Virus record (IMG/VR): IMGVR_UViG_3300020044_008512
Span: 1 to 52,020 of that record
Reading direction: 5' to 3' (one strand)
Source: a virus
Taxonomy: Duplodnaviria > Caudoviricetes
DNA: 52,020 nt
Shown here: positions 14,601 to 44,807 of the stretch, piece by piece
Layout of the letters: every line of letters begins with the position of its first letter
How positions within the stretch are numbered: the first letter of the stretch is position 1
The notes under the pieces: generated by a model
Told to the model about the DNA's origin: nothing
Database searches by the model: none
Seen by the model: only the letters and a program-made list of their open reading frames with translations
Program-made: the position numbers and the translations under genes

Positions 14601-17600
14601 GTCAGGGGTCATTATTTTATCGCCAGTGACGTTGCGGATTACTTTAGCTTCGAAACTGGGAAACCAATTGTTGCTCAGGCGTTCCATGGAACTCAGGGAG
14701 ATATTGTAAAATTTGACAAAGCAAAGCTTGGCAGCGTAACTGAAGCCAAAAGCGCCAAAAAAGCTTTTTTCTTTTCGTCGTCACCTGTTGTTGCAAGCAG
14801 CTATCCAGAAATTGGAGGAGGCAGGAGGGTTGGCGAGCTGGACAGAAAAATAAATGAGACGCGTTTTGCATGGCTTGAAAATGATTCCAAACCAGCAGGA
14901 CCAGGGCAAGTATCTGAAAGTGACAGGTTGCACAACCTTCAGCTAGAGCTTGAAGCTCAAAGAAACGAGCTTTTGGGCACTGGCGACATTTCTAAAGAAC
15001 AACGCAGAATTGATGGTGAAATGAAGTCTCTGAAACTTGATGCTGATAAAATTTACAAGGATATAGTTAACCGAGATGACGGGGAAGCAACGCTCAAGGA
15101 GCGCCAAGAATTGAACAGGATTGAAATTCTTCAAAAGAATCTTGAAGCTGAATGGCAGGACCTAAAGAAGAAAAAAGAAAAGCTTTGGATGCAGGCTCGG
15201 CAAGAGGGGTCCAACATAATTCCTGTTCACGTAAAGCTTGAAAACCCTCTTGTTTACGATTTCAGGGGTGGAAGCTATCAAGACCATCCGTTTTCGTCAC
15301 TAATTGACGAAGCGATTAAAAACGGTCACGACGGCGTTGTTTTCAAGAACGTAAGGGACGGAGCCACTGATGATGCTAATATTCCGGCAACAAACTATGC
15401 CGTTTTTGACACTAGCAAACAGGTAAGAAATGCCATCACATCGCAACCCATGGCCGCTGGTCGCCGCAAAAAACTAACACCGCCAGAAAGCGAAGAATTT
15501 AACAATTGGTTTAAAGGAAGTAAGGCTTCATACAAAGGCAAGCCGGTAATGTTTGTTCACGGTACAAATAAATCGTTTGAAAACATTAAGCCAAGTGATG
15601 AAACTGGCTTAATTTTTCTTACCGAAGATACTAGCCTTGGAAACATTTATACCAAAAAACTTAGTGAAGGACTTGGTGGAAGATTAATTCCAGCTTGGGT
15701 TTCAATGAAAAACCCAGCTTCTACTGAACTGTACGATTCTATTGCAGAAAAACTTGGCGTAAAAGGTGCGGTTGATTATTTAAAATCAAAAGGCTACGAC
15801 TCGATAGGAAGCGGAAGAGGAGTTGTGGCTGTTTTTAATGCGTCTCAAATCAGAAGCGCGATAAGCAATCTTCCGCTTGCTCCTGGACGCGGACGCCCCA
15901 AGAAAGACCGCATTGACCCGTGGGCAAAGGGTTTGATGTTTGAACCTGAGCAGCTCGCGCCTCGCGGCGGCATTGACCAGTACGAACGCAAACTTGAAGA
16001 AGGACAGCTTCCAAAGCTTCCCACTGCTGACGAAATCAGCATGAACGCGGCTGGCTGGATTGCCAGAGAAATGACTTCTGCCGAAAAAGAAGGCAAGCAA
16101 TACGTTCCAGATTACAAGAAGTTCTCTGAATACATGTCTCGCAACTTCAAGACCAAGTCTGGTCAAATGAAGGAGCTGTATCAGAACTTGCTTGTTGCCA
16201 ACTTGCAAAATGCAAGAGGCGAATCTCTTCAGAACATTATCAAAGCAGTCTTTGGCAAAGAGCATCCTTTTTCAAAGATGCGGATACCTGACAAGATGAG
16301 CGAAAGCGGTGGTCTTCAGCTTGAGCAGTCAGATTTATTTAAAGACCCAGTTGCCGAAATTCTTAGGAAGGCTCGCACTCCAATGGAGTCAAAGGGCATT
16401 TCAGAATCCGAGCAGCGTCAGCGCATGCGGTCAAAAGCAATCTCCATGATTGTTAAGCGGCTTATTGAGCCGATGATGGAGAACGATGCTGAAGTTTTAA
16501 CCCGCAAAGAAATCAGCCCGTCAGAACTCAGCCCAGTTGGTGCAGCTGAAGGCATTGCGTCTGGATATCAAGAGCTGTCTGCACAAGACGAATTCAACCC
16601 AGAACTTCCAGATGTTCTTGTCGATAGGAGCCGACGCAGTGCAAACGACAGGGCTTCAATAAGCAAACGCCTTACAGTCATAATGGACAGAAAGACTGGC
16701 AAGGTTCATATGGTTTCCACTTGGAGAAACCCGACCAGCGGAAAAGTATTCTTTGCAAATCCAGCGCTCAAGACTGGAGAGGGAATGTTCCTTTATGATG
16801 CGTTAAAGAACTACCGCCTTCTTCGTTCCGTTTTGCTTGACGAGCCGCTTGAAAGGTTTTCTCAATCTTATGAAAACCTTAAAGATTACAATAAGAAGTT
16901 TGGGAACGAAGCTTTTGAAAACTATTCAAAAGAGACCAGCTACGACCCTGACACAATACCAATTGAAGATTTTTCCAATTCCGAAAGCCCGAATCCAAAT
17001 CAGGTGATGGTTGACCCATACGGAAGAAAGATTGAAATTCCATCAGAGGAAGGCATTCAAGGGGAAGGCGGCTCAATGGTTGGGCCTGCAAAGTCGCTTG
17101 TCGAATCTCAAATTGGAATGGGCAAGTCAGCAGTTGAAGAATCAATCCGTTCAAAGATTACTCGCCGCGAAGCAATGTCAGTTAGCGAAGCTTTCTCAGA
17201 GGCAGACACACCTGAAAAAATCAGAGAAGTTTTGAGCGGACTGCATCAAGAGAATTTCAGCAAGTTGCGTGAATCATTTCAAAAGGCAACCGTCAAGTTA
17301 GACAGGGCTCTTGAAGCTTTTCGCAGGGCTCTTGGCAAAGGCGGTGTTGATTTCACTAGCCTAAAAGAGGGCGAGTACTCAAATGAACAGGTTGAGCGCT
17401 CCATAGCAAACCTTTCAGAAGTGGAGCAGGAAAGAATCAACAAGGTTCAGGCTTCAATTCCAAAGTTACAGCAAGCTGTTGCAAATGCTTCTAGAGACTT
17501 TAGAAAGAATACGCTGCTTCGTTCCGGCGTAGCAAAGATTGCCAAGAGAGTTCAGGCATCTGGAAAAAATTGGCCTGTTGAAGATTTGATGAATCGGTTG

Positions 17601-20600
17601 GTTAATAAAATTCAAACATTAAACCAAATGTTTGACACTCATGAAGAGTTTGCAGACGCATTGTCAGAACGAGAAGTAAGGAAAGTAGAAAGGCCTTCCG
17701 AGAAGGGGACATGGACTCCGAGGCCTCCAGGAAAAAAGATGAGCGCTTACGAGCAGGCAAAGCGCGGACTGGATTTGCCTTCTGGAAAGCTGGCTCTGAA
17801 AGATGCTCCTGGAAAACCTGTTGTTCCAACGTCTCCAGAAAACCTTTCTCCTGCTCCACCTAAGCCTATTGAGACTATCAATGGTGAAGAGTTTAAGGCC
17901 ATTATTCAGGGTTCGATTACTCCTGAAATGCGGTCTGGTGAAGCGACAAAGCTTTCTAGAGAAGACGAAATCGAGATTGAGAAATATCTCGCTGAAGAAA
18001 AAACTAGAAAGGAATGGGAATCTTTCCTTGAAAAACGGCGCGGTGATTTGGCTGCGCTTAATCCAAAAACTGAAAAGTTTAGATTGGAAGGGCAGGTTGT
18101 TGAAAAGCCTAAAGATGTTTCTGTTGATAAAGAAACAATGGCTCGGTTCATGAAGATTAGAAACGAGCAAAGGCGGAAGCAAGGGCTTCTCCCAATGTCT
18201 CCAGGCAGAGGCGCAATCAAGGCTGTATCCGATTCGTTTGCTGACTCGGTTGCAAAGTTTGTTGCTATTGGAGCTGCTTGGACAAAGCGCGCAAATGCAG
18301 ACGCCGTTATATCTGCTGGAGCTGATGCGTATCAAACTTCTGCAAGAACTTTTGCTGCTGGCTCTGGTAATAAAATAAGGATTCAAGCCCTTAAGGATGG
18401 AGCGAAATTTCTTGGTCGCTCTCGTAAGGTTGAGAATCTAAAGATACTTGGAGGAGCAATTGCGATGCACGCAACGCGCGCAATTAGGAAGACGTTTGTT
18501 TATTCCAATGAAGCGACGGCAGCTTTTGACGAAGCGGCAAAAGATAGCTCGGACATGAAGATTGGGCACATGCTTCTCAATGCAACGGACATGCATTCTC
18601 TGAAGCTGGCAATCAAAGATGCGTTTGACCATTTTGAATTCAAAGACAAGCAGTCAGTATTAAGCAATTTGCTTTCAAGAATAAACAAAGGCGCTGGTCA
18701 AGTTGCCATTAGAAATGAAAAAGGGCAGACCGTAGGATGGAAAGATGCTGACAGAGCAATCAACGCAGACCTTCGTAAAGCTGGTCTTGAAATGATTAAA
18801 GAGGCCGAGCGCCGCATTGAAAATAATCTTGTGGAGCGCGGACTTCTGACGCATACGGGAGCAACTTACAAGATTGACGACTTTGCGAAATCTAAATTGG
18901 AAGAGTTTGCGCTTGGAGTTAATCGCGGAATCGCTCGCGCAAACAAGATGCTTAAGGAAGGCGGAATGAGAGACAGACTTGTTGCAAGGGCTTGGCTTAA
19001 AGACTTGGAAAAGCACAAGAACGACATCGAATTTGCAATGGCTCATTGGAGCGACCCGCAGCTTAGAGAGGCAACCATTGAAGCCCAGAAAGAGTTTGAC
19101 GCTCAGTACGACAGAGAGTCAGCTGCTGGCTCAAGGCTGTCATACAATGACGCGTACCTTCCTGGACGTTATGACGGGCAATTCCATAACAACGATTCTA
19201 TTGAGTTTGGTCCGAGCAGAATACTTGGACGCCAAACAACAAAGGCTCGCGTGTTTAAGAATTACTACGAGGCCGCATCTTCGGGCCCGTACATTGCTGC
19301 TTCGCATAACATTGCCGACATCCTTGAGCACAGGGTAAGACAAGGCATGACAAAGATTGGTCTGAGAGGATGGGAAGCTGATTTGATTTCAATGACCGAC
19401 GAAGCGACTGGAAAACCCGCATTCATTGCGGCAAAGAAAGTTGGCGATGGGTTTGTGCCTGACTTGCCTCCAGGGGCTAACGGCGCTGATTACGTTGCAG
19501 TTAACACAAGCTCAACAAGGACTCCAATCTTTGCATTGGCTGGTGACTATGCCAAATGGCTAACAAGGCTTACAGCTCCCAGCAGAGTTGATGATTGGGC
19601 AATTGCAAAAGGAGCGCTTCAAGCTGGTCAAGCACTCAAGCACGTTGCGCTTGTTGGCGACATATTCCATTTGGCTCGCGTTACATATTACGGAGCTTCA
19701 ATCATTGGAAAGAAAGCATTTGCACTAAGCGCTCACTCGGAAGGATGGGCGACACTAGACATACATGCAGCAGATTTAAAAACTGCTTTTGAAAAAGGAT
19801 TCATAAGCGAAAAAGCGTACAAGTGGTCAACTGAAAAACTTCCAGTAACATTTAATGGCGTAAAAGATACAATGACTCGCCATCAGATTGCTCGAGAATA
19901 TCAAAAGGTCGGGTTCAACGTTGGAATGATTAGTGATGCAATTTACAAAGACTTGGTTAGAAACGTTCCTGTTATCGGAACGTACAACAAATTCTTGTTT
20001 GACCATTATCAGCGAGGACTCATGATGCGTTCTGCGCTTGATGAATTTGAGCGCAGGCACAAACTAAACCCAAACAGAGACAGCAGAATTTTAATGCGTG
20101 AAATATCCCATGACTTGAATGGATACTTTGGCTCGATTGGAAAGCAGGGATGGGTTAAGTCTGCAACATTCCAAGACTTGCTCAGGATTCCGTTCTTGTC
20201 CCCCCAATGGGTTGAGGGCATCATAAAGAAAGATATAGCAATTCCTTATAAATTAATTGGCTCATTAAAAGACGGGATTGAAGGTCCGAAAAAATTGCTA
20301 AGGGGCGATGAAACTTCTGCAAGAGGAATCACAAGAGGCCTTATGGGAATGCTTGTCCTTACTCAAGTAATCAACATCATTAACAGAGGACAGCCTACTT
20401 GGAGCAATGAAGAGGGCCACAAAATGCAGGCCGACCTTGGAGACAATGTGTGGCTTGACCCGATGGCAGTTTTTAACGAGACGATTTCTGAGCTTGTTAG
20501 ATACAGCGAAACAAAAGAAGACTCAATCGAAGCAATTAAACAAGTTGGAGAAAATAAACTTGGATTTGTTGGAAGGGCCGGCCTTGTTCTTGGAACAAGA

Positions 20601-21182
20601 AAAACATTTAAGGGCAGGGAAATTCATGGAGTTGGAAATCTGCTGGGTCAAACTGCGAAGACGCTTGTTCCAGTTCCAATTACTCTTAACGCTCCTGTTC
20701 AGGAAATGATTTACAAGCTATCAGGAGGAAAATATTCAGAACCAACAACTGCGCAGCAAGCGAAAAGGTCATTCTATGGCGTGCTTGGATTTAAAGTTGA
20801 GGCTGGAAGAAGGGCTGACCAAGAGATGGCTTTGAAGGCTAAAAAGTTTGTCGATGAAAACAAGCTGAAGTCCAGTTCGACAACCGTGAACATGTCAGAT
20901 GAGCCGAGCTATTCAGACATACGCAGACAGCTTGACCTTGGCAATCCGCAAGGTGCCAAGAATGCGCTGCTTGCAATTAGGGAAAGAGGGGTAAGCGACA
21001 AGCAGATTATTGCAGCTATGAAAAGGTGGGAAAGCGCCCCATTCGCTGGCAGCAGAGCAAATGAACTTTTGTGGATTCACTCAATGGATGCCAGCGAAAT
21101 GGAGCTTTACCAAAAGGCCATTGAATACAAGCGGGACTTGTATTACAAATGGATTGATTTCTACACTAACGAGCCGGAATAG
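11637..21182 (+). CDS. Giant (3181 aa) polyvalent internal virion protein with two ADP-ribosyltransferase-like (ART-PolyVal) domains
   Basis: AFHGT...FFFS...IIPVHVKLENP...GHDGVVF...YAVFD and FVHGT...IFLT...LIPAWVSMKNP...GYDSI...AVFNASQIRSA; PDIFDEL N-terminal motif. Confidence 0.75.
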   Translation: MPDIFDELQDEFKSKPLLQAEPRQADIFDQIQQDGTISQWKPSPYQRLEAAFPAAFQRAGTIADPEHPRGILPAAWQAANKPAGIMEKILPELKVTHDDSIFSAIGKETYNILTGIPKFASSPLGIATFGVGAASKAAGKTVAKVFQADMLKNLGESVYNVYENWGTMSPGERAAAIEDGLASGIFAKILHKHAWAGEPVKPIEIQKEKTETAPATPAEALAASAKPPAAESATATAPVAAAPKFPEVFSINSEEGVGHYVTDPEGNQIGDVYENIADAKFHADNLNEVAFNKAEQERIAAKTAAVPEIGTATEIEGVMSLGEGRYQSETAPPIGAFNVVKTTIGGKTVYKFRMPKGKAPKEIGAAAPAPEPAAAAAPAAATEPAAATEAAKPAEPAETKPAAKEPWQMTSSEYFQQEFPNIKKHPGSIDREHRISVEKALKEGKPVSPEVLADYPDLKPAATETVESKTIGVSDEAQQLLDQHADAAGEAGIVTDESLRNEVRKGESESSVDEPFSLGRHLTHIADFLKSTGGIATIDRIKKRVVINAQAFNDFIKSIPVERRAAAVRAVLAEERIHLHTADADALRYWNSLSRLEKWAIRKKYQVEPSQMNDTLWGHEAVRYRLQQLMRMSPTEIAQEFGGKGSTRRRLAIKSLDILEAIIRKTRSIVSKTATKEMNAVLDKIQESLKSGRIADAEIKTVAGKPYKTTLSNEAAELEKQAEDFRKAGLNDEADELMQMAQWSRSKAYGEEMPFARGRKPGDEDPNQGTFDALLNRAKFEEIHRVINETGDRLFKKNEAEMFRQAQLESGQPPIMEIPLARGRNWKATGEDAQEYKLPVGLSYDDLYEIALKNNVSPERLQSIYKELVSLNPELSGISKSQYGKDSQRKISPIRDVIAGVASKFKAENIKYFVEELNGSFRNADERARQYNNQKDFKGGVSHVVITPDEFLEQLKFPLAAGRARQLEPHDKKSVFDISQSTQGFRDWVRGHYFIASDVADYFSFETGKPIVAQAFHGTQGDIVKFDKAKLGSVTEAKSAKKAFFFSSSPVVASSYPEIGGGRRVGELDRKINETRFAWLENDSKPAGPGQVSESDRLHNLQLELEAQRNELLGTGDISKEQRRIDGEMKSLKLDADKIYKDIVNRDDGEATLKERQELNRIEILQKNLEAEWQDLKKKKEKLWMQARQEGSNIIPVHVKLENPLVYDFRGGSYQDHPFSSLIDEAIKNGHDGVVFKNVRDGATDDANIPATNYAVFDTSKQVRNAITSQPMAAGRRKKLTPPESEEFNNWFKGSKASYKGKPVMFVHGTNKSFENIKPSDETGLIFLTEDTSLGNIYTKKLSEGLGGRLIPAWVSMKNPASTELYDSIAEKLGVKGAVDYLKSKGYDSIGSGRGVVAVFNASQIRSAISNLPLAPGRGRPKKDRIDPWAKGLMFEPEQLAPRGGIDQYERKLEEGQLPKLPTADEISMNAAGWIAREMTSAEKEGKQYVPDYKKFSEYMSRNFKTKSGQMKELYQNLLVANLQNARGESLQNIIKAVFGKEHPFSKMRIPDKMSESGGLQLEQSDLFKDPVAEILRKARTPMESKGISESEQRQRMRSKAISMIVKRLIEPMMENDAEVLTRKEISPSELSPVGAAEGIASGYQELSAQDEFNPELPDVLVDRSRRSANDRASISKRLTVIMDRKTGKVHMVSTWRNPTSGKVFFANPALKTGEGMFLYDALKNYRLLRSVLLDEPLERFSQSYENLKDYNKKFGNEAFENYSKETSYDPDTIPIEDFSNSESPNPNQVMVDPYGRKIEIPSEEGIQGEGGSMVGPAKSLVESQIGMGKSAVEESIRSKITRREAMSVSEAFSEADTPEKIREVLSGLHQENFSKLRESFQKATVKLDRALEAFRRALGKGGVDFTSLKEGEYSNEQVERSIANLSEVEQERINKVQASIPKLQQAVANASRDFRKNTLLRSGVAKIAKRVQASGKNWPVEDLMNRLVNKIQTLNQMFDTHEEFADALSEREVRKVERPSEKGTWTPRPPGKKMSAYEQAKRGLDLPSGKLALKDAPGKPVVPTSPENLSPAPPKPIETINGEEFKAIIQGSITPEMRSGEATKLSREDEIEIEKYLAEEKTRKEWESFLEKRRGDLAALNPKTEKFRLEGQVVEKPKDVSVDKETMARFMKIRNEQRRKQGLLPMSPGRGAIKAVSDSFADSVAKFVAIGAAWTKRANADAVISAGADAYQTSARTFAAGSGNKIRIQALKDGAKFLGRSRKVENLKILGGAIAMHATRAIRKTFVYSNEATAAFDEAAKDSSDMKIGHMLLNATDMHSLKLAIKDAFDHFEFKDKQSVLSNLLSRINKGAGQVAIRNEKGQTVGWKDADRAINADLRKAGLEMIKEAERRIENNLVERGLLTHTGATYKIDDFAKSKLEEFALGVNRGIARANKMLKEGGMRDRLVARAWLKDLEKHKNDIEFAMAHWSDPQLREATIEAQKEFDAQYDRESAAGSRLSYNDAYLPGRYDGQFHNNDSIEFGPSRILGRQTTKARVFKNYYEAASSGPYIAASHNIADILEHRVRQGMTKIGLRGWEADLISMTDEATGKPAFIAAKKVGDGFVPDLPPGANGADYVAVNTSSTRTPIFALAGDYAKWLTRLTAPSRVDDWAIAKGALQAGQALKHVALVGDIFHLARVTYYGASIIGKKAFALSAHSEGWATLDIHAADLKTAFEKGFISEKAYKWSTEKLPVTFNGVKDTMTRHQIAREYQKVGFNVGMISDAIYKDLVRNVPVIGTYNKFLFDHYQRGLMMRSALDEFERRHKLNPNRDSRILMREISHDLNGYFGSIGKQGWVKSATFQDLLRIPFLSPQWVEGIIKKDIAIPYKLIGSLKDGIEGPKKLLRGDETSARGITRGLMGMLVLTQVINIINRGQPTWSNEEGHKMQADLGDNVWLDPMAVFNETISELVRYSETKEDSIEAIKQVGENKLGFVGRAGLVLGTRKTFKGREIHGVGNLLGQTAKTLVPVPITLNAPVQEMIYKLSGGKYSEPTTAQQAKRSFYGVLGFKVEAGRRADQEMALKAKKFVDENKLKSSSTTVNMSDEPSYSDIRRQLDLGNPQGAKNALLAIRERGVSDKQIIAAMKRWESAPFAGSRANELLWIHSMDASEMELYQKAIEYKRDLYYKWIDFYTNEPE

Positions 21183-28555: not shown

Positions 28556-28597
28556 AAAAATAAAGCCGCAGCGCGACTGGCGTAATCGCGCTGCGGC
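28556..28597 (-). terminator. Intrinsic terminator closing the Ubl/E2/E1/JAB operon
   Basis: 12-bp stem GCCGCAGCGCGA/TCGCGCTGCGGC followed by TTTATTTTT on the - strand. Confidence 0.75.
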
Positions 28598-28637
28598 CAG
28601 GTGGTTTCAATTTAGCAAACCTTTTCCGATTGTCAAC

Positions 28638-29771
28638 TCACACGCCATGTCCGAAGTAACCGCCCTCGGCTTCGTATGCCGCCCACTCTGCCTCAGACTT
28701 TGCCATTGAGTCATCTTTCTTGCTGGCAGCGACTTGCTCCTGTTCAAGAGCTCTGCACAGCTGCTGAAGACTGAGGAAGTTGTCCGAGCACTGCTCGAAT
28801 ATCTCGTGATAAAGCTCGGAATACTGACCATCGCCAAGCTCGTCGATAATGTCGAACAGCTCCTCGTCGTCGACGCCCATGAGCGCCGCTTTCTCCGCAA
28901 TCTTGGCAAGCGCTTCTTGCGCATTGCTGTATCGCTTGTATGTGTTTTGAGCGAGCGGTTTGTTTTTGTTTGGGCAGTTCTCCTCTGCGTGTGTTTGCCA
29001 GCTGTTGCAATTCTTGCACCAGTTGCCATGACCAAACCCGTTGAAGCTTGCATGCGATGAAGCATACACATGCACTGGCTCAACGACATAGTTGGACTTC
29101 CAGATGTCATTGAACGGATGGTCTTTGGGCGCTGGCACGCACATCTGGTCGCGAGCAACTTTGTTCATAATCTGCAACGGGTCGAAGCCCAAGTCAGACA
29201 CGAACTTGATTTTCTCCATCGCCTCATTGCCGATGTCCCAGAACGCCGCCATGTCAGGCTCGAACTTGTTGCCTTTGATATACAGCCTGCAATGGATGTC
29301 ATGCCGAGGGCTGTCCATCTTGCCGATTGTGATGTGCAAGCCGTCCACGCCCTTCTCGTCTGCGGTGTCGGTTGAGCTTTGGAACGCAGTCGCTGAGCAA
29401 TGATGATGCACTGTGCCGAATGGAACATAGCCTTCAGGAATGTTCAGCGCTCGCTGAGTCTTGAATTCTTGGTTGTCCAGCTCCTTGGTGGTCATTGATG
29501 TTCCGCCTTTCTGCGGGAACGCCCACGCCATCCAGCCATGCTCGGGATGAACAAACAGGCGAACTTGCGACTCGCTCTTTTCGGTGTCTTGAGTCCACTT
29601 GAAGAACGCAAGAACTTCGCGCCACATCTCGGGGTCCATCTTCTTGCCTTTCCAAGTGAAGTCGCCTTTCGTTGACTTGACTTCGTGCTCAAGAAGACAC
29701 TCGAACAATCCGTGGACTTCTTTAAGCTCAACTGACTTGCCGCTGCTTTCTGTGATGGTTGCTGATTTCAT
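28638..29771 (-). CDS. JAB/MPN+ metallopeptidase (deconjugase), PRTRC protein A-like, with C-terminal extension
   Basis: Catalytic Glu in ESQVRLF; HxH...S..D motif GTVHHHCSATAFQSSTDTADE; GLHITIG. Confidence 0.82.
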   Translation of the reverse strand: MKSATITESSGKSVELKEVHGLFECLLEHEVKSTKGDFTWKGKKMDPEMWREVLAFFKWTQDTEKSESQVRLFVHPEHGWMAWAFPQKGGTSMTTKELDNQEFKTQRALNIPEGYVPFGTVHHHCSATAFQSSTDTADEKGVDGLHITIGKMDSPRHDIHCRLYIKGNKFEPDMAAFWDIGNEAMEKIKFVSDLGFDPLQIMNKVARDQMCVPAPKDHPFNDIWKSNYVVEPVHVYASSHASFNGFGHGNWCKNCNSWQTHAEENCPNKNKPLAQNTYKRYSNAQEALAKIAEKAALMGVDDEELFDIIDELGDGQYSELYHEIFEQCSDNFLSLQQLCRALEQEQVAASKKDDSMAKSEAEWAAYEAEGGYFGHGV

Positions 29772-29774
29772 ATG

Positions 29775-30425
29775 TTAGTTGCTGTTGTCTTCCAATGCGG
29801 TTTCGTAATCGTTACCAAGGTTTGTGCGAACTGCCTCAAGGAGCCGAGTGCGAAGCTGGCGATAACCGCCGTCAGGTTCAGCTTCGAAGTTGTCTGTGTG
29901 GTCAAACTCTTCGTTGTCGTATTCATATCCGTCATAAGACTCCATTAAGCTAGAGTCATAATTCTCGGATACTTCGTCATGGAGCATGTCGGTAATTTCC
30001 TGAACTGATTTGCCATCGTCAATCCATTGTTGAATGTCATCCATCGTTGTGCTGCTCATGTACGAACCGCTCCTGCGAACAGAATAATCGCACCTGCCAT
30101 ACTCGACATCGGAAATAGACCACTCGACATCGAACAAAATACGACCATCTGGATTGTACTTGCGCATGGCGGCGCCAGTCTTTGACTCAAAGTTTTCTTC
30201 GACCCAGTTTTTAAGAGCGTCAAACCCAACCAATTCCTTGGGCGGCTCTTTGAGCAGGATGCGCATCATCTGCGCTCTGACAATCGGATTGTTAGGCGAC
30301 AGCTTGATAAGCTCAATGAAGCTAGCAGTGAAGTGCTCTTCGATTTTGCTTTTCTTGACTGGCGCTGGCGCTGGAGCTTCGGTGATTACTGCGGGGACAA
30401 TTTGTTCTGCGGTTGTATCATTCAT
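29775..30425 (-). CDS. Acidic hypothetical protein within the Ubl operon
   Basis: 216 aa; overlaps the E1 stop and lies 3 nt from the JAB start. Confidence 0.7.
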   Translation of the reverse strand: MNDTTAEQIVPAVITEAPAPAPVKKSKIEEHFTASFIELIKLSPNNPIVRAQMMRILLKEPPKELVGFDALKNWVEENFESKTGAAMRKYNPDGRILFDVEWSISDVEYGRCDYSVRRSGSYMSSTTMDDIQQWIDDGKSVQEITDMLHDEVSENYDSSLMESYDGYEYDNEEFDHTDNFEAEPDGGYRQLRTRLLEAVRTNLGNDYETALEDNSN

Positions 30426-31095
30426 TGGTTTTTGTGTGGTTGATTTGTTTAACTACTTCGTAACTGGACATGTTTTGACGGATGCGGTAAGGCAGGTGTG
30501 CTTGAGCTTCGCGGTTAAACTTGTTGCGTTCCATGTGCCATAGAACGAACAGATGTTGCATCAATGCCGCAGCCATGAAGTTGGCTGACACCAGCTGCCT
30601 GTTGTTTTTCTGTGCTTCTCCCGTGCAGCCGATTGCCGCATGGCGCGGGTCATCGGATGCGTCGGTAGAAATTTCTGGATAATAGCGCTGAGGGTCCATT
30701 TCACTACCCTGCCACTTGGGGTCATAATAGTAAGCCTCAGCACTAGTTACCTCGTTAGCGCCGAATATAGCTTTGCAGCCATACACATCGCATGATTCAA
30801 GCACGGCTTTCCTTGCCGGATTGTTGTCAACGCCGACAAGCAGCCAGTCCTGCCTGTTCAGGTGGATTGAGCCGTGCGAGTAATAGCCGCAAGGAGCAGC
30901 AACGCAGCCATACTTGGCCGCGAGAGCTTGCGCCTTCGGCTTGCCGATGTCCTCTTCGGTAAACAGCTGACGATTGAGGTTTTTATGCTCAAGTGTGTCG
31001 CCGTCGACGACAATGACTTCGCTTGGTGATTTGAGCAGACATATTGCGGGAGTAAGCCAGGAGCCTACACCGCCAGCGCCGATTATGTATATCAT
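30418..31095 (-). CDS. E1/ThiF-family Ubl-activating enzyme
   Basis: IIGAGGVGS, VDGD, NLNRQ, GKPKA, GVDNNPAR; candidate catalytic Cys in AAIGCTG. Confidence 0.9.
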   Translation of the reverse strand: MIYIIGAGGVGSWLTPAICLLKSPSEVIVVDGDTLEHKNLNRQLFTEEDIGKPKAQALAAKYGCVAAPCGYYSHGSIHLNRQDWLLVGVDNNPARKAVLESCDVYGCKAIFGANEVTSAEAYYYDPKWQGSEMDPQRYYPEISTDASDDPRHAAIGCTGEAQKNNRQLVSANFMAAALMQHLFVLWHMERNKFNREAQAHLPYRIRQNMSSYEVVKQINHTKTNE

Positions 31096-31096
31096 A

Positions 31097-31414
31097 TTAA
31101 AAAGGAGCTTGTGATGAAACTACCTTGTCAAAGAAGTTGCTCATGTTTGTTTGCATGTTTGGCGCACTCTTTAGCGTTTTGTATCTCTCAAACATGTTGT
31201 GCATATGAGTGTGAAAACTTTCTCGATGTTCTAAATTAGGCAGCAGCTGTATAAGCAGATTGCTGTTATGATATGCAGCAACCATTATTTTGTGCCTATT
31301 TGTACATTCGCTGATTGCGGATTTGTATGACTGGTCGATGTCTTCGATGATTGGCTTTGTTGTGGTTTGAGAGGAGCGCTTAAGCTCTTCGTAAAACATT
31401 TGTTCTATTTTCAT
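31097..31414 (-). CDS. Hypothetical helical protein within the Ubl operon
   Basis: 105 aa; coupled to E2 (ATGA overlap) and E1 (1 nt gap). Confidence 0.65.
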   Translation of the reverse strand: MKIEQMFYEELKRSSQTTTKPIIEDIDQSYKSAISECTNRHKIMVAAYHNSNLLIQLLPNLEHRESFHTHMHNMFERYKTLKSAPNMQTNMSNFFDKVVSSQAPF

Positions 31415-32163
31415 ATGGATGATGCGACGATGTCGGTTACACGTGTTGCGATTTTAGTGCATAGGTTTGACCAATGAGTTGACTCGTCCATTGGCACTTG
31501 CTCAACGGATGTTTCGGTTGGCTTGAACATAAACATGCTGCCAGCTTTCTGAGATGTTTGAGAACTGTTCAAATCGCTGTTCCAGGCTGAGTTGTAGAAC
31601 TGGCCGAGAGCCAGCGCAAACGCGGCTTGGATGCTTTCTGCGCCGCCATCGAACCTGCCCATGCAGACTGCGCCATCTTCAAAGATGTTCGGGAGCGGAA
31701 GCTTCCAAGCAACTTTGTTGGCGTCCAATGCAAACAAGTAGTTTGATTGGTCAGGCTGCGTTTTTGGACAGAGTCGAGGAATGTTCCAGTTATAAACCTT
31801 GGACACAAAGTATAGGCTCATGCTTTCTGGGCACACCCACTTCGGACTCATGATTGGATGCTGTTTTGATTGCGAATCATCGGTTTTGATGAATATCGGA
31901 CGAAGTATTTTATCGTCTGGGTTGAGATAGTAATGCGATGTCAGCGTGATGCTGTGCAGTCGGGTGAACACAAACAATTCGTTTTTCTTGAACGACATGT
32001 GCACGGGATTGTCGCCGAAGTAAAACGCGTTGCAGATTTTGTGAACCATTTCGCTGGCGAATGATTCTGCGATTGTTGATGAGAGTTCGCGAGGCTCTTG
32101 GCTCTCTTGAACGCTGAAACATGTGCCGTCTGGATTGATTCGTATATAGTTTTGGAAGTTCAT
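31411..32163 (-). CDS. Prokaryotic E2-like conjugating enzyme (Prok-E2 family D/PRTRC protein B-like)
   Basis: LPLPNIFEDGAVCMG matches the E2 (H)PNIxxxGxICL active-site motif; FYNSAWNSDL downstream. Confidence 0.78.
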   Translation of the reverse strand: MNFQNYIRINPDGTCFSVQESQEPRELSSTIAESFASEMVHKICNAFYFGDNPVHMSFKKNELFVFTRLHSITLTSHYYLNPDDKILRPIFIKTDDSQSKQHPIMSPKWVCPESMSLYFVSKVYNWNIPRLCPKTQPDQSNYLFALDANKVAWKLPLPNIFEDGAVCMGRFDGGAESIQAAFALALGQFYNSAWNSDLNSSQTSQKAGSMFMFKPTETSVEQVPMDESTHWSNLCTKIATRVTDIVASSI

Positions 32164-32185
32164 TTTGTTGTACGGTTTAATGGTT

Positions 32186-32220
32186 AAAAAAAGGGGCGGC
32201 AGGTTTTACCCTGCCGCCCC
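32186..32220 (-). terminator. Intrinsic terminator between the Ubl and E2 genes
   Basis: 11-bp perfect stem GGGGCGGCAGG/CCTGCCGCCCC + T7 on the - strand. Confidence 0.85.
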
Positions 32221-32238
32221 AAGTGGATTTGCTACCGA

Positions 32239-32460
32239 TTATGCCTTGCTGTTGGCGCGAGTCTCGAGAGAAACGATAGTGCCGTTGCCGGGAATCGCAT
32301 CGCCAGGCATCTCAACGCTGTTGACGAGCGCACGGACATTGTCGCCGTAGCCAAGCACGACGCGAGTGGTCGGGTCAGCAATAATCTGAGCGATGGTGGT
32401 GTTTTCGTTGACGATGACGTTGCGAACTTCGGAGCCGTATTTGATGGTGATGGTCTTCAT
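32239..32460 (-). CDS. Ubiquitin-like beta-grasp protein (Ubl)
   Basis: 73 aa; beta-beta-alpha-beta-beta-beta pattern (TITIKY, RNVIV, TTIAQII, ALVN, GTIVSLE) with a free tail TRANSKA; leads the E2/E1/JAB operon. Confidence 0.75.
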   Translation of the reverse strand: MKTITIKYGSEVRNVIVNENTTIAQIIADPTTRVVLGYGDNVRALVNSVEMPGDAIPGNGTIVSLETRANSKA

Positions 32461-33779: not shown

Positions 33780-34280
33780 TTAGGAGACTTGATTCAAGGC
33801 TTCGAGCAGCACAACTTCCGACTTGGACTGCGCAGCTTCTACGATTGCAAGCTGCTCGTCTTCCTTGAGCTGGCGCATCGCTTCGACGAGCTGCTCGCGG
33901 CTGATGGTGTGCGTTTGACGCGTGCAGGAGACCAGATTCATGGTCGCCGTGACTTTGCCTGACTTGCTGACACGTTTCGTGAGCCGGCCACCAGTCCAAT
34001 CGGGAGACGCAGCCATCTGCGCGAACTCGCCGATTGCCGCTTCCTTGACCTTGTCGGTCAGGGCCAGGATGGCAGCATCAATCTGGGCTGAATCAGTCTT
34101 CGTGTTCAATCCGAGCCGCTTGGCAAGGTCTTTACGCTTTTCGATGGTCAAAGACATACCGACGACAGGATTCTTCTCGCCTTCCGCAGCTTTAGGGTCT
34201 TGAAGACGAACCTTCGAGACGATACCCAAAGACAATTCGGGAGCGGTGAAGTTGAACAGGCTGATTTGTTGGTTTTTCAT
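33780..34280 (-). CDS. Hypothetical early protein
   Basis: 166 aa; own terminator and structured leader. Confidence 0.7.
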   Translation of the reverse strand: MKNQQISLFNFTAPELSLGIVSKVRLQDPKAAEGEKNPVVGMSLTIEKRKDLAKRLGLNTKTDSAQIDAAILALTDKVKEAAIGEFAQMAASPDWTGGRLTKRVSKSGKVTATMNLVSCTRQTHTISREQLVEAMRQLKEDEQLAIVEAAQSKSEVVLLEALNQVS

Positions 34281-37996: not shown

Positions 37997-38749
37997 ATGT
38001 CTCGCGTAAAAGTATTTTGCTTTTTTTATAATGAATCATTTTTGATTCCTTTTTTCTTGAGGCATTATCAATACGCCGACATTCATGCTTTTGTAAGCAA
38101 ATCAATAGATTCAACAGTTGAAATGCTTCAAGCCGCTCCCAATGTCATTGTTGAAAACGTTGAATTTCCTCAAGGGCTTGACGACGAAATAAAAACAAAC
38201 ACGCTTAACAACGCGTTAAACAAACACGACAGCAAACACGATTGGCACATATGCGTTGACTCGGATGAATTTATTTGGCCTCAAGGAATGAACCCGCTTT
38301 TGTTTCCAGACAAGACTCCCGAATTTCTTGATTCAATTTCTTCAAAAGATAATTGCGTCATGGCAAGAATGTGGAACGTTTACAGGAACAAAGAAGATTC
38401 AGACTTAAATCCGCTTTTTCCAGTTTCATCTCAAAGAAGGCATGGCGTTCCTGAATTTCATATTTGGTACGAAAAAAAGATAATCTTTCGTTCAAACCTC
38501 GGGATAAATTTAAGTCTTGGGAACCACAGCACTTCTGGTGGTGTGAGCGTTTCGCCAATCGAATTCAGGGGAGCTCATTGGCAAAATGCAGACCCATCTT
38601 TTTGCGTCATGCGAAGAGTGAGGGACCGCTCAAACCATATAAGTTTAAACAACAAGTCAAAGGGCTACGGCGTCCAGCACTTTGACTTGTCAGAAGAAAA
38701 AATAATGCAAGAGTGTCGAAACCACGAAAACGACCCAATTGTGTTTTAG
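37997..38749 (+). CDS. GT-A glycosyltransferase (family 2-like)
   Basis: YNESFLIPFFLRHY, DSTVE, DxD motif VDSDEF. Confidence 0.8.
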   Translation: MSRVKVFCFFYNESFLIPFFLRHYQYADIHAFVSKSIDSTVEMLQAAPNVIVENVEFPQGLDDEIKTNTLNNALNKHDSKHDWHICVDSDEFIWPQGMNPLLFPDKTPEFLDSISSKDNCVMARMWNVYRNKEDSDLNPLFPVSSQRRHGVPEFHIWYEKKIIFRSNLGINLSLGNHSTSGGVSVSPIEFRGAHWQNADPSFCVMRRVRDRSNHISLNNKSKGYGVQHFDLSEEKIMQECRNHENDPIVF

Positions 38750-38753
38750 CCAA

Positions 38754-39380
38754 ATGAAAATAAAAAGCGTATTTGAAATTGCAAAATCTAATTCAGAACT
38801 GAACGTTCCAGATTCAATAGATTTGCAAGGATGGAACAGCGATAGCGAAATCTTTTACAATCTTGTAAATGAGATAAAACCAAACACGATTGTGGAAGTT
38901 GGGACATGGAAAGGCAGAAGCGCTGCTCGATGGCTTGAGGCGACAGCAAGTGCTGGTTTAGAAACTAAATTGTATTGCGTTGATTCTTGGCTTGGTGGAA
39001 TAGACCATTACATAGCTGAAACAAACAGGCTTTTAGATTCCGCTGGCTCTCCAAGAATCTATCATCAATTCATTAAAAACTTTATTGATTCAAAACATTC
39101 GAACCGCATTTACCCAATTCAGCAAACAAGCGTAAACGGGGCTCGCATATTGTCTCATTACAAAATCAAAGCTGACATCATTTACATAGATGCCGGACAT
39201 GAATACGAAGACGTTATTGACGATTTGAAATATTATTGGCCGGTTCTTGAAAAGAATGGAAAAATGTTCGGCGATGATTTTTATAATTTTTCAGGTGTTT
39301 CAAAAGCCGTTGAAGAATTTTCAAAATTAAACAACTTGTCGTTTGACGTTGTTGAAAACAATTTTTGGATTTTAAAATGA
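38754..39380 (+). CDS. Class I SAM-dependent methyltransferase (Methyltransf_24-like)
   Basis: VEVGTWKGRS, VDSW, IYIDAGHEY, GDD. Confidence 0.88.
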   Translation: MKIKSVFEIAKSNSELNVPDSIDLQGWNSDSEIFYNLVNEIKPNTIVEVGTWKGRSAARWLEATASAGLETKLYCVDSWLGGIDHYIAETNRLLDSAGSPRIYHQFIKNFIDSKHSNRIYPIQQTSVNGARILSHYKIKADIIYIDAGHEYEDVIDDLKYYWPVLEKNGKMFGDDFYNFSGVSKAVEEFSKLNNLSFDVVENNFWILK

Positions 39381-40237
39381 AATGTTACGTCCATCTTGGA
39401 AAACATGGAGACTTGATGATTCTGATGCCAGGTTGGCTTAAAGAATTTCAGAAAACTGGAGAGCGCCCAATCGTAATGGTAAGCAGGGAGTTTGCTTCAA
39501 CTCTTGATGGAATATCCTACGTCAAAAAATGGGTTGTTGATTTGCACTGGTATGGCGATTGCGGAGAAGCAAGGAAATGGGCCGAAAAAGAATTCGGAAA
39601 AGAAAACGTCATCTTTCCAAAATGGTGGGATGACCCTACGTTTACTCCGCCAGAAATCAGGCACGATGCCGTAAGCTTAATCATTCACGGAAAAAGGATG
39701 ATGATAGAAAAAGACGAATGGTTTTCCTACATGGCAAGTTCGTGGAAATACGCTGGTTTTCCGCTGTCAGAAATGCTTGAGCCAGTTGTGTTCGATAGGC
39801 GCAGGCCTGGAGTCGAGCTTGCGCTCAGGAAATTGTATTTCAAAACCAAGAAGCCAAAACTTTTTGTGTGTTTGAATACTGGAGGCTCAAGCCCATTTGG
39901 ATACGTTCCAGAAGTTGAGAAAGTGATTTATTCATTTAGAGATGAATTTGAAATCATTGACCTGATGCAAATTAGGGCTGAACACATCTTTGATTTGCTT
40001 GGTCTGTTCGACCACCCAGCCGCATGCCTTGTCACAACAGATACGGCAATCCTGCATCTTGCCGGAGCTTCCAAAGTTCCTTATCTGGCTTACATATCTA
40101 ACGGCGGCGGAGGCTCAATACCAAGGGGGAATTATGTTACTCAAATAAGATATGCAGACACAGTGACAAGGATAAACGATTTGGAAATGTTCCTTGAATC
40201 GCAGCACGCTTTGAACGCTCCAAAAATAATTGTATGA
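39377..40237 (+). CDS. GT-B glycosyltransferase (family 9-like)
   Basis: HGDLMILMP and VTTDTAILHLAGA. Confidence 0.75.
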   Translation: MKCYVHLGKHGDLMILMPGWLKEFQKTGERPIVMVSREFASTLDGISYVKKWVVDLHWYGDCGEARKWAEKEFGKENVIFPKWWDDPTFTPPEIRHDAVSLIIHGKRMMIEKDEWFSYMASSWKYAGFPLSEMLEPVVFDRRRPGVELALRKLYFKTKKPKLFVCLNTGGSSPFGYVPEVEKVIYSFRDEFEIIDLMQIRAEHIFDLLGLFDHPAACLVTTDTAILHLAGASKVPYLAYISNGGGGSIPRGNYVTQIRYADTVTRINDLEMFLESQHALNAPKIIV

Positions 40238-40845
40238 TGCGGATAAATTTCATCATTACTGCATACAACAAAGAAGAATTCCTTGAGCCGTTGCTTTCCG
40301 TGTTAAACGGATATAAGAAAATAAAAGCGTTTCATTGCATTGTTTACAATGGCAAACAAGACGATTTTCCAAGGCACATATGGATTCCAAACAGGGGCCA
40401 CCAGCAAGGCGACATGGATTTGACAAAGGCTGGATATTATGCGCTTAGAAGCAACAATGTGTATCGCTTTATCAAAACAGGAATCGACACGTTCTTGTTG
40501 GACGAAGACCACATAATCAGAATCTTTAACGAGATGGAGAAAAGCCAATGCGGATACGCTGGCAACAGGTGGGGGCACGAACAAGAAACATCATTGTCTA
40601 CCGACATTATATTTGCCGATACAAGGTTTGGTGATGTTTTTGAAGGCTTGGAAATGGAAGGCTACCCAGCTTACGAGTGGGCTATGTGGGGCCATTGCAT
40701 GAAATATAAAATTAAGGTGATGATGATTAAGGAAAGGATTCCAGTCCACGAAAACAACAGAATGGAATGCGAAGCCCTTAAATGGACAATGCACCACCAG
40801 CTTGAAAGAAACGTTGCAAATATGCAAAAATGGGGATACAAATAA
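40234..40845 (+). CDS. Putative GT-A glycosyltransferase
   Basis: FIITAYNKEEFL start; NRGH; IDTF. Confidence 0.55.
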   Translation: MMRINFIITAYNKEEFLEPLLSVLNGYKKIKAFHCIVYNGKQDDFPRHIWIPNRGHQQGDMDLTKAGYYALRSNNVYRFIKTGIDTFLLDEDHIIRIFNEMEKSQCGYAGNRWGHEQETSLSTDIIFADTRFGDVFEGLEMEGYPAYEWAMWGHCMKYKIKVMMIKERIPVHENNRMECEALKWTMHHQLERNVANMQKWGYK

Positions 40846-43140: not shown

Positions 43141-43515
43141 ATGAACATCTTCATCCAAAAAATCCCGCACGCACAGCAGCGATACCCTACTGTCGGCGAT
43201 TGGTTTTGGGACAATGGAGATTTGTTTATAACCGTGTCCAAAATGGACAATTGGAAATACGAATTTCTTGTAACGCTTCACGAACTTGCCGAAGTACATC
43301 TTTGCATTCACAGCGGAATTGACCAATCAGTTGTTGATGCGTTTGACATAAAGTTTGAAAAGAAGCGCAAAAAAGGCAACACCGACGAACCTGGAGACGA
43401 CCCCAAGTGCCCTTACAGAAACGAACACCTTATCGCCACGGGCATTGAAAAAATTGCAGCCGCATTTTTGGGCGTGTGCTGGAAAGACTACGAAGAAAAA
43501 GTGAACAGCTTATGA
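43141..43515 (+). CDS. Small zincin-like protein (HExxE)
   Basis: LVTLHELAEVHLC...PY..EH..AT..E. Confidence 0.5.
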   Translation: MNIFIQKIPHAQQRYPTVGDWFWDNGDLFITVSKMDNWKYEFLVTLHELAEVHLCIHSGIDQSVVDAFDIKFEKKRKKGNTDEPGDDPKCPYRNEHLIATGIEKIAAAFLGVCWKDYEEKVNSL

Positions 43516-44807
43516 AAGACACTAAAGACGTCATTGCTTTGGTAATCGACACGGGTGTTTTCCAGCACGTTGCTAGGCGATTGGGCAGGGAATACAGGAA
43601 AGTGTATTACTGGTCTCCGTGGGAACTTGCTTTTCCAAAACTTAAAGACGCCATCGTGTGCGACGGATACCCAGAAGTCACAAGGGTTGAGTCAATTGAA
43701 TCCGTGAAAAAGGAATGCGACCTGTTTGTATTTACTGACATCGGTTATTCTGATTTGCAGATGGAGCTTATTGAAATGGGAAAGGCTGTCTGGGGTTGCC
43801 GTAACGCAGACGAGCTTGAAGCTCGCAGGGGTAAGTTTTTGGAAGTGCTTGAAGAAAACACAAACCTTCCAGTTCCAGTATTTGACAAGATTAAAGGACT
43901 GACAAATTTAAGGCTTTTCCTCAAAGATGTTGAGGATGTGTACATCAAAGTCAGCACATACAGGGGAGACTTCGAAACCTGCCATTTCAGAAGCATGGAA
44001 GTTGATGAAACCCTTCTTGATAAATGGGGAATGATACTTGGACCGCTTCGCGAGCACATGAATTTCTTTGTGTTTTCTCCAATTGAAACCGACATAGAGG
44101 ACGGCATTGATACTTATTGCATTGATGGGCAATTTCCAGAAACAGTCATTCACGGAATGGAATGCAAAGATTGCGCTTACATTGGTGGATTCCAGCGCAT
44201 GATAGACGTGCCTGAAGAAGTCCGTTGCGTCAACGAAGCTTTCTCGCCAGTTCTCGCCGCCTACGGATATCGCTCGGCTTTCTCAACTGAGGTCCGAATC
44301 ACAAAAGGCGGCGAGAGCTTCTTCATCGACCCTACCTGCCGATTCCCGTCTCCGCCGTCTCAAGTGATGTGCGAGATGGTTGGCAACCTTGGCGAAATCA
44401 TGTGGAGGGGAGCAAACGGAATACTTGTTGAGCCGGAACAGGTGGCTAAATTTGGAGCTCAAGCAATATTCAACATCAAGCGAGACGCTTGGGCTGTATA
44501 CGAAATTCCAGAAGAATTAGACCAATGGGTAAAAATTGGGTTTTCTTGCAAAGTTGATGGCAAGGTTTGCGTTCCGCCAGACGTTCAGGGCGAGACTGAA
44601 ATAGGCTGGGTTGTCGGAATAGGCGACACCATTCAGGATGCCATAGACCATTTGCGCAAAAACAAAGACGCAATGCCACATGGCTGCGATGTAAAATTTG
44701 ACTCGCTTGCAAAACTTCTTAGCGAAATCCACTCAGCTCAAGAAAAGGGCATGGAATTCACGGACGAAGAAGTGCCAGAGCCTTCCAGCATCATAGATGA
44801 AGAATAG
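43512..44807 (+). CDS. ATP-grasp ligase, PurD/GAR-synthetase-like fold
   Basis: DLFVFTD, VWG...ELE..R, LPVP, YIKVS, IDPTCRFPSP (cf. EFNxRFGDPE). Confidence 0.65.
   Translation: MKDTKDVIALVIDTGVFQHVARRLGREYRKVYYWSPWELAFPKLKDAIVCDGYPEVTRVESIESVKKECDLFVFTDIGYSDLQMELIEMGKAVWGCRNADELEARRGKFLEVLEENTNLPVPVFDKIKGLTNLRLFLKDVEDVYIKVSTYRGDFETCHFRSMEVDETLLDKWGMILGPLREHMNFFVFSPIETDIEDGIDTYCIDGQFPETVIHGMECKDCAYIGGFQRMIDVPEEVRCVNEAFSPVLAAYGYRSAFSTEVRITKGGESFFIDPTCRFPSPPSQVMCEMVGNLGEIMWRGANGILVEPEQVAKFGAQAIFNIKRDAWAVYEIPEELDQWVKIGFSCKVDGKVCVPPDVQGETEIGWVVGIGDTIQDAIDHLRKNKDAMPHGCDVKFDSLAKLLSEIHSAQEKGMEFTDEEVPEPSSIIDEE

Follow-up and report, generated by a model that had tools for sequence, protein, structure and literature searches.

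The window analysed here, meaning the whole 52,020-nucleotide stretch of IMG/VR record IMGVR_UViG_3300020044_008512 (Duplodnaviria; Caudoviricetes), is a complete circular virus record in one 52,020-base contig with a 121-bp end repeat. At positions 28638-32460 it carries six open reading frames (ORFs), all on the minus strand, that make up a predicted ubiquitin-like conjugation cassette in the order Ubl-E2-X-E1-Y-JAB, where Ubl is a ubiquitin-like protein (the tag), E1 and E2 are its putative activating and carrier enzymes, JAB is a predicted metallopeptidase, and X and Y are two further proteins. The cassette and its terminators are laid out as follows.

32239-32460 (minus): Ubl tag, 73 amino acids, MoaD/ThiS-like by profile
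32193-32220 (minus): intrinsic terminator between Ubl and E2, fold z -4.6
31411-32163 (minus): E2-like carrier enzyme, 250 amino acids, divergent Prok-E2_D relative
31097-31414 (minus): gene X, 105 amino acids, no family match
30418-31095 (minus): minimal E1, a ThiF-type adenylase, 225 amino acids, Pfam ThiF 6e-16
29775-30425 (minus): gene Y, 216 amino acids, no family match above cut-off
28638-29771 (minus): JAB/JAMM metallopeptidase, 377 amino acids, with metal motif
28564-28598 (minus): operon-closing intrinsic terminator, 15-pair stem plus T run, fold z -4.5

The last five genes are joined by a 4-nt overlap (E2/X), a 1-nt gap (X/E1), an 8-nt overlap (E1/Y) and a 3-nt gap (Y/JAB), and because these junctions are short overlaps or gaps the five are probably translationally coupled. 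Coordinates and junctions thus agree with the original prediction of six co-oriented genes, the last five coupled, and the terminator that it placed at the end of the operon was located at 28598-28564. The motifs that it had picked out were likewise all found, namely PNIFEDGAVC in E2, GAGGVG, NLNRQ and IGCTG in E1, and the E...HHH...S..D pattern of JAB, which reads E67...H122-x-H124-x7-S132-x2-D135.

Related loci were found with E2, E1 and JAB alignments in IMG/VR, in metagenomes (best 80 of 149) and in genomes (best 80 of 131). By profile annotation, the order Ubl-E2-E1-(Y)-JAB was seen in these relatives wherever the contig allowed room for it, and because the same order recurs in related loci the arrangement is far beyond chance. 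Locus L009 had room upstream and no Ubl profile match; there, a longer protein includes a fused Ubl-like domain ending A-G-R-K-S. The enzyme genes lie between two terminators, the one 3' of JAB and a second strong one between Ubl and E2, which the original prediction did not mention, any more than the glycine-free tail or the optional presence of the cassette described below. In a hairpin-plus-T scan, a terminator stood 3' of Ubl in 60 of 90 loci, versus 3 of 90 after E2 and 2 of 90 after E1, suggesting that the tag is made in excess of the enzymes and consumed in excess; the same scan detected a terminator after JAB in only 14 of 73 relatives and left the one after Ubl mostly undetected in the clade that lacks Y. 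The Y-less loci L231, L233, L234, L235, L240 and L244 hold in their Ubl-E2 spacer a recurring GTCCTGAG...AAACTGCTC-type element that replaces the terminator. Neither the window nor three Y-less loci matched anything in Rfam, and no conserved leader structure was seen 5' of Ubl.

Catalytic residues of E1, E2 and JAB

Conservation was counted over distinct complete sequences, near-identical copies included. The best NCBIfam matches of the E1 were ThiF models, with PRTRC_ThiF at 5.5e-9 (35.7 of 144.75 bits, below cut-off). Residues G6, G8, G9, D31, D33, N39, R42, Q43 and K54 were kept in 125 of 125 sequences and the crossover-loop Cys157 in 124 of 125; the protein starts at the GxGG strand and has no CxxC zinc motifs in its sequence. 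The E2 matched Pfam Prok-E2_D at E 6e-4, below cut-off, as did 35 of its 143 homologues at E<=0.01, and a full-library search gave 440 relatives at E<=0.001, 150 of them listed. Only N159 and C167 were invariant in the alignment of 143 E2 sequences, and C167 also stood in 96 of 96 locus sequences, so that the E2 cysteine, on whose conservation the original prediction had staked itself, is kept throughout. Downstream of C167 there is no conserved His (His exceeds 25% in none of the columns over the 96 sequences, 2 of which have it at D197), and a W-N-x-D-L motif occupies the PRTRC-B His position. HHalign aligned the E2 with PRTRC-B at 93% over 35 columns, PRTRC_B weakly matched 2 of 143 E2 homologues, and a PDB sequence search with the E2 profile returned chance matches only.

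The JAB metal motif was equally well kept, with E67 in 96 of 98 sequences, H122 in 98 and H124, S132 and D135 in 97. Its peptidase domain covers approximately residues 1-230 and is followed by a variable acidic C-terminal region. The protein matched NCBIfam PRTRC_A at E 1.3e-3 (18.3 of 101.8 bits, below cut-off), and its motif aligned with STAM-binding protein only at E 0.55. In the N-terminal region, W50 was kept in 95 of 98 sequences, W80 in 93 and R71 in 57. The predicted Ubl/E1/E2/JAB set is thus present, and its catalytic residues are kept across related loci.

The ORF between E2 and E1, gene X, was recovered in 138 loci (102 distinct, a few miscalled) and had no family match in Pfam, NCBIfam and PHROGs scans. 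The nonsynonymous divergence (dN) of X exceeded that of E1 in 13 of 14 close pairs and the dN of E2 exceeded that of E1 in 12 of 15, the pairs being non-independent, with one identical pair omitted and X absent from one. X and E2 therefore change faster than E1, yet under purifying selection, and X is a candidate target adaptor for E2. Gene Y has 74 distinct homologues that share P-N-x3-R (P, N and R invariant), a W, E-x-G and an acidic Tyr segment; it is absent from one sub-clade, had no family match above cut-off, and found no usable match in the Atlas. Assignment of X or Y as PRTRC E or F, or as homologues of each other, found no HHalign support with three shallow templates.

The Lys-Ala tail of the tag

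The 73-amino-acid Ubl has the tail E66-T-R-A-N-S-K72-A73, which contains no Gly and is not extended. The protein itself had no Pfam match, and a PDB sequence search with its profile returned chance matches only, none of beta-grasp fold. The family profile aligned with MoaD/ThiS at HHalign 92-94%; 30 column shuffles gave at most 0.9%, the reversed profile 0.2% and a ThiS-only template subset 52%, the templates being 28 ORFs from Verrucomicrobiota genomes, of which 5 looked like miscalls and were left in. Among 82 Ubl homologues, weak Pfam matches fell on ThiS (5/82), SAMP2 (2/82) and ubiquitin-like (2/82) families, and the rank-5 cluster of an Atlas search was 11% ThiS. By profile, the Ubl is homologous to MoaD/ThiS, which agrees at the level of sequence with the putative beta-grasp fold on which the original prediction had also staked itself.

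The tail consensus of the tags is E-x-x-A-N/S-x-K-A, and conservation ends directly after K-A. In 89 distinct tags, taken from loci found via E1, E2 or JAB, the residue after the tail Lys was Ala in 85, Gln in 2, Asn in 1, Ser in 1 and Gly in 0, and 51 of the 89 terminate at the Ala of K-A. A profile favouring the K-A tail found 338 database homologues, and in the best 120 of these Ala followed the Lys in 116 (108 by pattern, 8 by eye), the other four having one each of Gly, Ser, Gln and Asn. In most of these 120 the tail runs on for a short and variable stretch, and 36 consist of tandem copies, in which the K-A motif recurs at the internal junction. Relatives encode tags that are 1-30 residues longer or come as two copies in tandem, and a near-identical relative of the window phage has a tag one residue longer. 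Loci L025, L028, L030, L221, L004 and L116 encode two-domain tandem tags with K-A at both ends, resembling polyubiquitin precursors.

The homologue with Gly after the Lys, P0158, has K-G in both of its tandem copies, and G-x-K-G stands equally far from the last strand in two of the three plasmid PRTRC-C proteins examined. In type II CBASS, cGAS is reported to be conjugated through a C-terminal Gly or Ala, a G-to-A change lowering the conjugation without abolishing it (PMC10097602). The simplest reading of the tail would be cleavage after K-A and activation of the Ala, with which the K-G homologue, the G-x-K-G of PRTRC-C and the Gly/Ala conjugation of cGAS agree.

Distribution and relation to known systems

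From 79 loci of capsid similarity, 36 near-complete IMG/VR phages (at least 50 kb) were chosen. E1 and Ubl were both present in the same 12 of the 36, neither was present in 24 and neither occurred alone; 11 of the 12 had already been found by the E1 search. A quick capsid tree confined the cassette to one clade of 19 (13 with it, 6 without) with 4 changes. The cassette is therefore optional and all-or-none among capsid-related phages. All 11 matches of a Ubl scan of IMG/VR were contigs already known for the cassette. Single-sequence IMG/VR scans with E2 and E1 gave nothing, alignments being required, and in GenBank phages nothing matched JAB at E<=0.01 and the matches of E1, in 4 records, were all partial. 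The capsid and terminase of the window were common to 15 of the first 20 Y-containing viral records and to 0 of 10 other viral records. The clade without Y has PolA together with an AEP primase, so that the cassette occurs in more than one phage backbone.

As expected from its predicted place among the early genes, the cassette sits with early and recombination genes of the phage. YopX, RecT, a PD-(D/E)XK nuclease, a helicase and a Toprim protein lie downstream of it in the window, together with a ParB-like gene 3 kb downstream that had a weak PHROG match only, and RecT, the PD-(D/E)XK nuclease, the ParB-like gene and the helicase follow the cassette in many relatives. The terminase-, portal- and capsid-like genes were assigned by position and size and are unnamed by Pfam, PHROGs and NCBIfam.

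Full-length E1 relatives numbered 2 among the best 80 of 131 genome matches, both in Verrucomicrobiota and one labelled Limisphaerales; neither the capsid nor the terminase matched in these Verrucomicrobiota copies. Because the full-length bacterial relatives lie in Verrucomicrobiota assemblies, the host of the window phage is likely a member of that phylum. Of 401 genomes in the class of the Limisphaerales copy, 1 had the tag, namely the centre genome. Copies in such bacterial islands lie near a gene of ~490 amino acids that is sliding-clamp-like by eye, with no Pfam match at 1e-4 (L124:2480-3955, L055:498-1970, L078:2483-3934). Other compact sets of a small protein, an E2-sized protein, an E1 and a following gene, of different families, were seen at L127:6823-9210 and L038:5421-8484, with small-protein tails ...NSAAA and ...DAQG.

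Several other genes around the cassette were recorded. A 3181-amino-acid protein (11637-21182, plus strand) with two ART-PolyVal ADP-ribosyltransferase domains is a second predicted host-modifying activity. A glycosyltransferase, a methyltransferase and an unnamed 443-amino-acid gene flank the portal-like gene (37997-40845 and 43476-44807, plus strand), the last being ATP-grasp-like by eye and common to 4 of 6 relatives compared. Upstream of the cassette, a 166-amino-acid gene (33780-34280, minus strand) common to 9 distinct relatives has the N-terminus QISLF, which we take to be clamp-motif-like, with QLGLIGF, QVALF and QMALF in relatives. Five cassette-less phages gave no match to this gene or to the helicase, in searches that had no positive control and carry no weight here. 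Immediately 5' of Ubl, 9 distinct sequences have a protein of ~144 amino acids with an internal repeat that is absent from the window (for example L001:6028-6468, L003:6221-6661 and L120:2184-2618).

Operons of class 6d, a type published since 2006 with bacteria as its listed carriers (Iyer, Burroughs, Aravind 2006; PMC1779556), are described there as having a Ubl with a highly conserved C-terminal glycine, an E2 with a conserved Cys and an absolutely conserved downstream His, an alpha-helical partner with absolutely conserved polar residues, and a JAB with a JAB-N domain that holds a strictly conserved Arg and Trp. The phage cassette resembles them in its standalone Ubl, E2, E1 and JAB genes in one operon on mobile DNA and in its E2 Cys, but its tag ends in K-A rather than Gly (Gly in 0 of 89 locus tags and 1 of 120 database tags) and its E2 has no conserved downstream His; having neither the Gly-ended Ubl nor the E2 His, it is not filed in class 6d. 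The kinship with PRTRC proposed in the original prediction stands in the form of profile likeness, all PRTRC family scores being below cut-off: the E1 aligns with PRTRC ThiF (HHalign 99%), the E2 is a relative of Prok-E2_D/PRTRC-B, the JAB weakly matches PRTRC_A, and Lys is the next-to-last residue of the tag tail. By contrast, the phage Ubl does not align with PRTRC-C (three templates only), there is no NCBIfam match to PRTRC B or C, X and Y stand in place of a PRTRC E, F or ParB-family partner, and the cassette is mostly phage-borne, with its own gene order. On these comparisons, the phage cassette is predicted to work like class 6d/PRTRC and yet is a distinct variant.

Bil, Type II CBASS and Bub were compared from published accounts (PMC11601596, 10.1101/2023.09.26.559546, 10.1101/2022.03.31.486616, PMC11601603). 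Bil likewise has Ubl, E1, E2 and JAB and no E3; its E1 and E2 are reported to conjugate without an E3 (PMC11601596) and its JAB to pre-process the Ubl (10.1101/2023.09.26.559546). It differs in that BilD is a multidomain IAD-AAD-CYS E1, BilA is Gly-ended and the system is a bacterial defence, whereas the phage E1 is a single domain of 225 amino acids, which matched BilD weakly (E 0.006), and PADLOC gave matches to E1 domains only. Cap2/Cap3 of Type II CBASS are similar in that E1/E2 conjugates via a C-terminal Gly or Ala and JAB reverses this, according to PMC10097602, but the substrate is a CD-NTase rather than a beta-grasp tag and E1 and E2 are fused. Bub (6E/DUF6527) shares a homodimeric minimal E1 fold, JAB processing and tandem Ubl domains; it uses Tyr (E1) and Ser (E2) oxyesters, Gly-ended Ubls and BubE, whereas the phage cassette keeps both cysteines, and no Pfam match to BubE/DUF6527 was found in the window.

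Other viruses, namely the Nidhogg Asgard viruses, the gut phage family PF1238490 and the crAss-like cr85_1, likewise encode ThiF/UBA5-like proteins. In the accounts at hand, the E1-like genes of Nidhogg and PF1238490 are described alone, without a complete tag-E1-E2-JAB set, and the ThiF of cr85_1 covers only 44% of the window E1 at 31% identity. In cr85_1 (L010:2933-6648), adjacent metalloprotease and ThiF genes follow two hypothetical genes, possibly a crAss-type cassette. A survey of jumbo phages (PMC7824862) describes no complete phage Ubl-E1-E2-JAB set in the portion consulted, and literature covered mostly at abstract level and without supplements (for example of the Aravind and Corbett groups) yielded neither a complete phage-encoded set nor a Lys-Ala tag.

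Proposed mechanism and competing explanations

It is very probable that the cassette has conjugation activity of some kind. We lean, by a narrow balance, to the proposal that its six genes would attach the K-A tag covalently via Ala73 to host proteins early in infection, and host proteins as the main target are held with the same slight preference. In this scheme, the terminator after Ubl would keep the tag in excess over the enzymes, and JAB would trim tag precursors after K-A, the tag of the window phage being encoded already trimmed. E1 would adenylate Ala73 using ATP, hold the tag as a thioester on Cys157 and hand it to Cys167 of E2; the choice of target lysine would then fall to E2 and the fast-evolving X, helped optionally by Y, and JAB would be able to undo the link between tag and target. 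The role of the cassette would be optional host interference rather than virion assembly or replication. Jamming of host Ubl-based defence, also considered in the original prediction, has nothing specific in its favour: given its Lys-Ala tail and its divergence in sequence, the tag is more likely to be orthogonal to host tags that end in Gly.

Several observations weigh against this proposal. The E1 is without the N-terminal segment that gives the ATP-site Arg in other E1s, MoeB among them. In BilD, this residue is reported to be Arg9, from the IAD (10.1101/2023.09.26.559546). The E2 is without the class 6d His, and dN/dS was below 1 in all gene comparisons but that of Y (1.33, at very low dS), so that positive selection has no support. 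The remaining points concern the bacterial islands and the tail, and bear on the first two of the explanations that follow.

The same chemistry might serve a defence module carried by the phage, tagging competing phages or mobile elements and protecting the infected cell or, for copies on a chromosome, the bacterium, in the manner of Bil, whose Ubl is reported to be joined to tail proteins of phages (PMC11601596). The Verrucomicrobiota contigs that hold one sub-clade gave no capsid or terminase match; the cassette lies there amid mobile-element genes, adjoining CBASS genes (L082) and Wadjet (L124), which fits defence equally, and optional all-or-none presence with a variable X and E2 would suit any conflict role. 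However, the deep branches of the E1 tree are mostly viral contigs and the island clade nests inside viral E1 diversity (quick tree only), the cassette lies in the early/recombination region of phages without a named integrase, and PADLOC recognises only the E1 domain; we consider a defence role unlikely.

A second explanation keeps the pathway and shifts the end of the mature tag to Lys72, with JAB removing Ala73 as its preferred P1' residue and E1 activating the C-terminal Lys. K72 (81/81) is indeed more invariant than A73 (77/81), in the register of the MoaD alignment the last Gly falls on K72 and not on A73, and the rare tags with Q, N or S after the Lys, and one further tag with Glu, always have an extension. 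Yet none of the 89 locus tags or 120 database tags stops at Lys, whereas 51 of the 89 stop at K-A; K-G variants and the G-x-K-G of PRTRC-C match K-A position for position; and bulky termini are reported to abolish cGAS conjugation (PMC10097602). A Lys-ended tag is accordingly quite improbable.

A regulatory switch, in which the cassette would modify phage replication or recombination proteins or the host sliding clamp, could account for the replication and recombination genes that follow it in many relatives and for the clamp-motif-like QISLF start of the upstream gene. On the other hand, no terminal clamp motif is conserved in E1, E2, X, Y or JAB (at most 4 of 96), and clamp docking by cassette proteins was rejected for the present branch; the cassette-less phage G468 retains the primase, helicase, ParB-like and nuclease genes of its cassette-bearing sister; and the Y-less clade has the different PolA/AEP module, all of which leaves the switch a poor prospect. 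A sulfur-carrier system, in which the tag would form a thiocarboxylate as ThiS/MoaD do, to serve a small molecule or nucleic acid, and would not be conjugated to proteins, is very improbable, as the E2 Cys is invariant, JAB is obligate, the tail has no Gly-Gly, and no sulfurtransferase was seen among the scanned window proteins (as had been predicted, none was named among 42 Pfam-scanned proteins, some small ORFs lying outside the scan) or, by eye, among the 45 commonest neighbour clusters, even though the tag profile is nearer MoaD/ThiS than PRTRC-C and the E1 prefers ThiF models.

Returning to conjugation through Ala73, we speculate, at somewhat less than even confidence, that a widespread, phage-centred branch with a glycine-free Lys-Ala tag, its phages supplying tag, E1, E2 and eraser themselves, over-produces the tag, swaps the fast-evolving E2 and X, and marks and disables chosen host proteins, turning on the bacterium a chemistry familiar from its own anti-phage defence. 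The K-A tail would offer a direct readout, as target lysines would retain one Ala (+71.037 Da) after digestion with trypsin. A beta-grasp tag joined via Ala would, if true, widen the Gly-end rule and might provide an orthogonal protein-tagging tool, and the cassette, if working, would open a first way into class 6d/PRTRC-like cassettes, on whose function our searches turned up no study. The tested bacterial ubiquitin-like pathways, CBASS, Bil and Bub, represent the bacterial side; a working phage pathway, if true, would be the same chemistry from the viral side.

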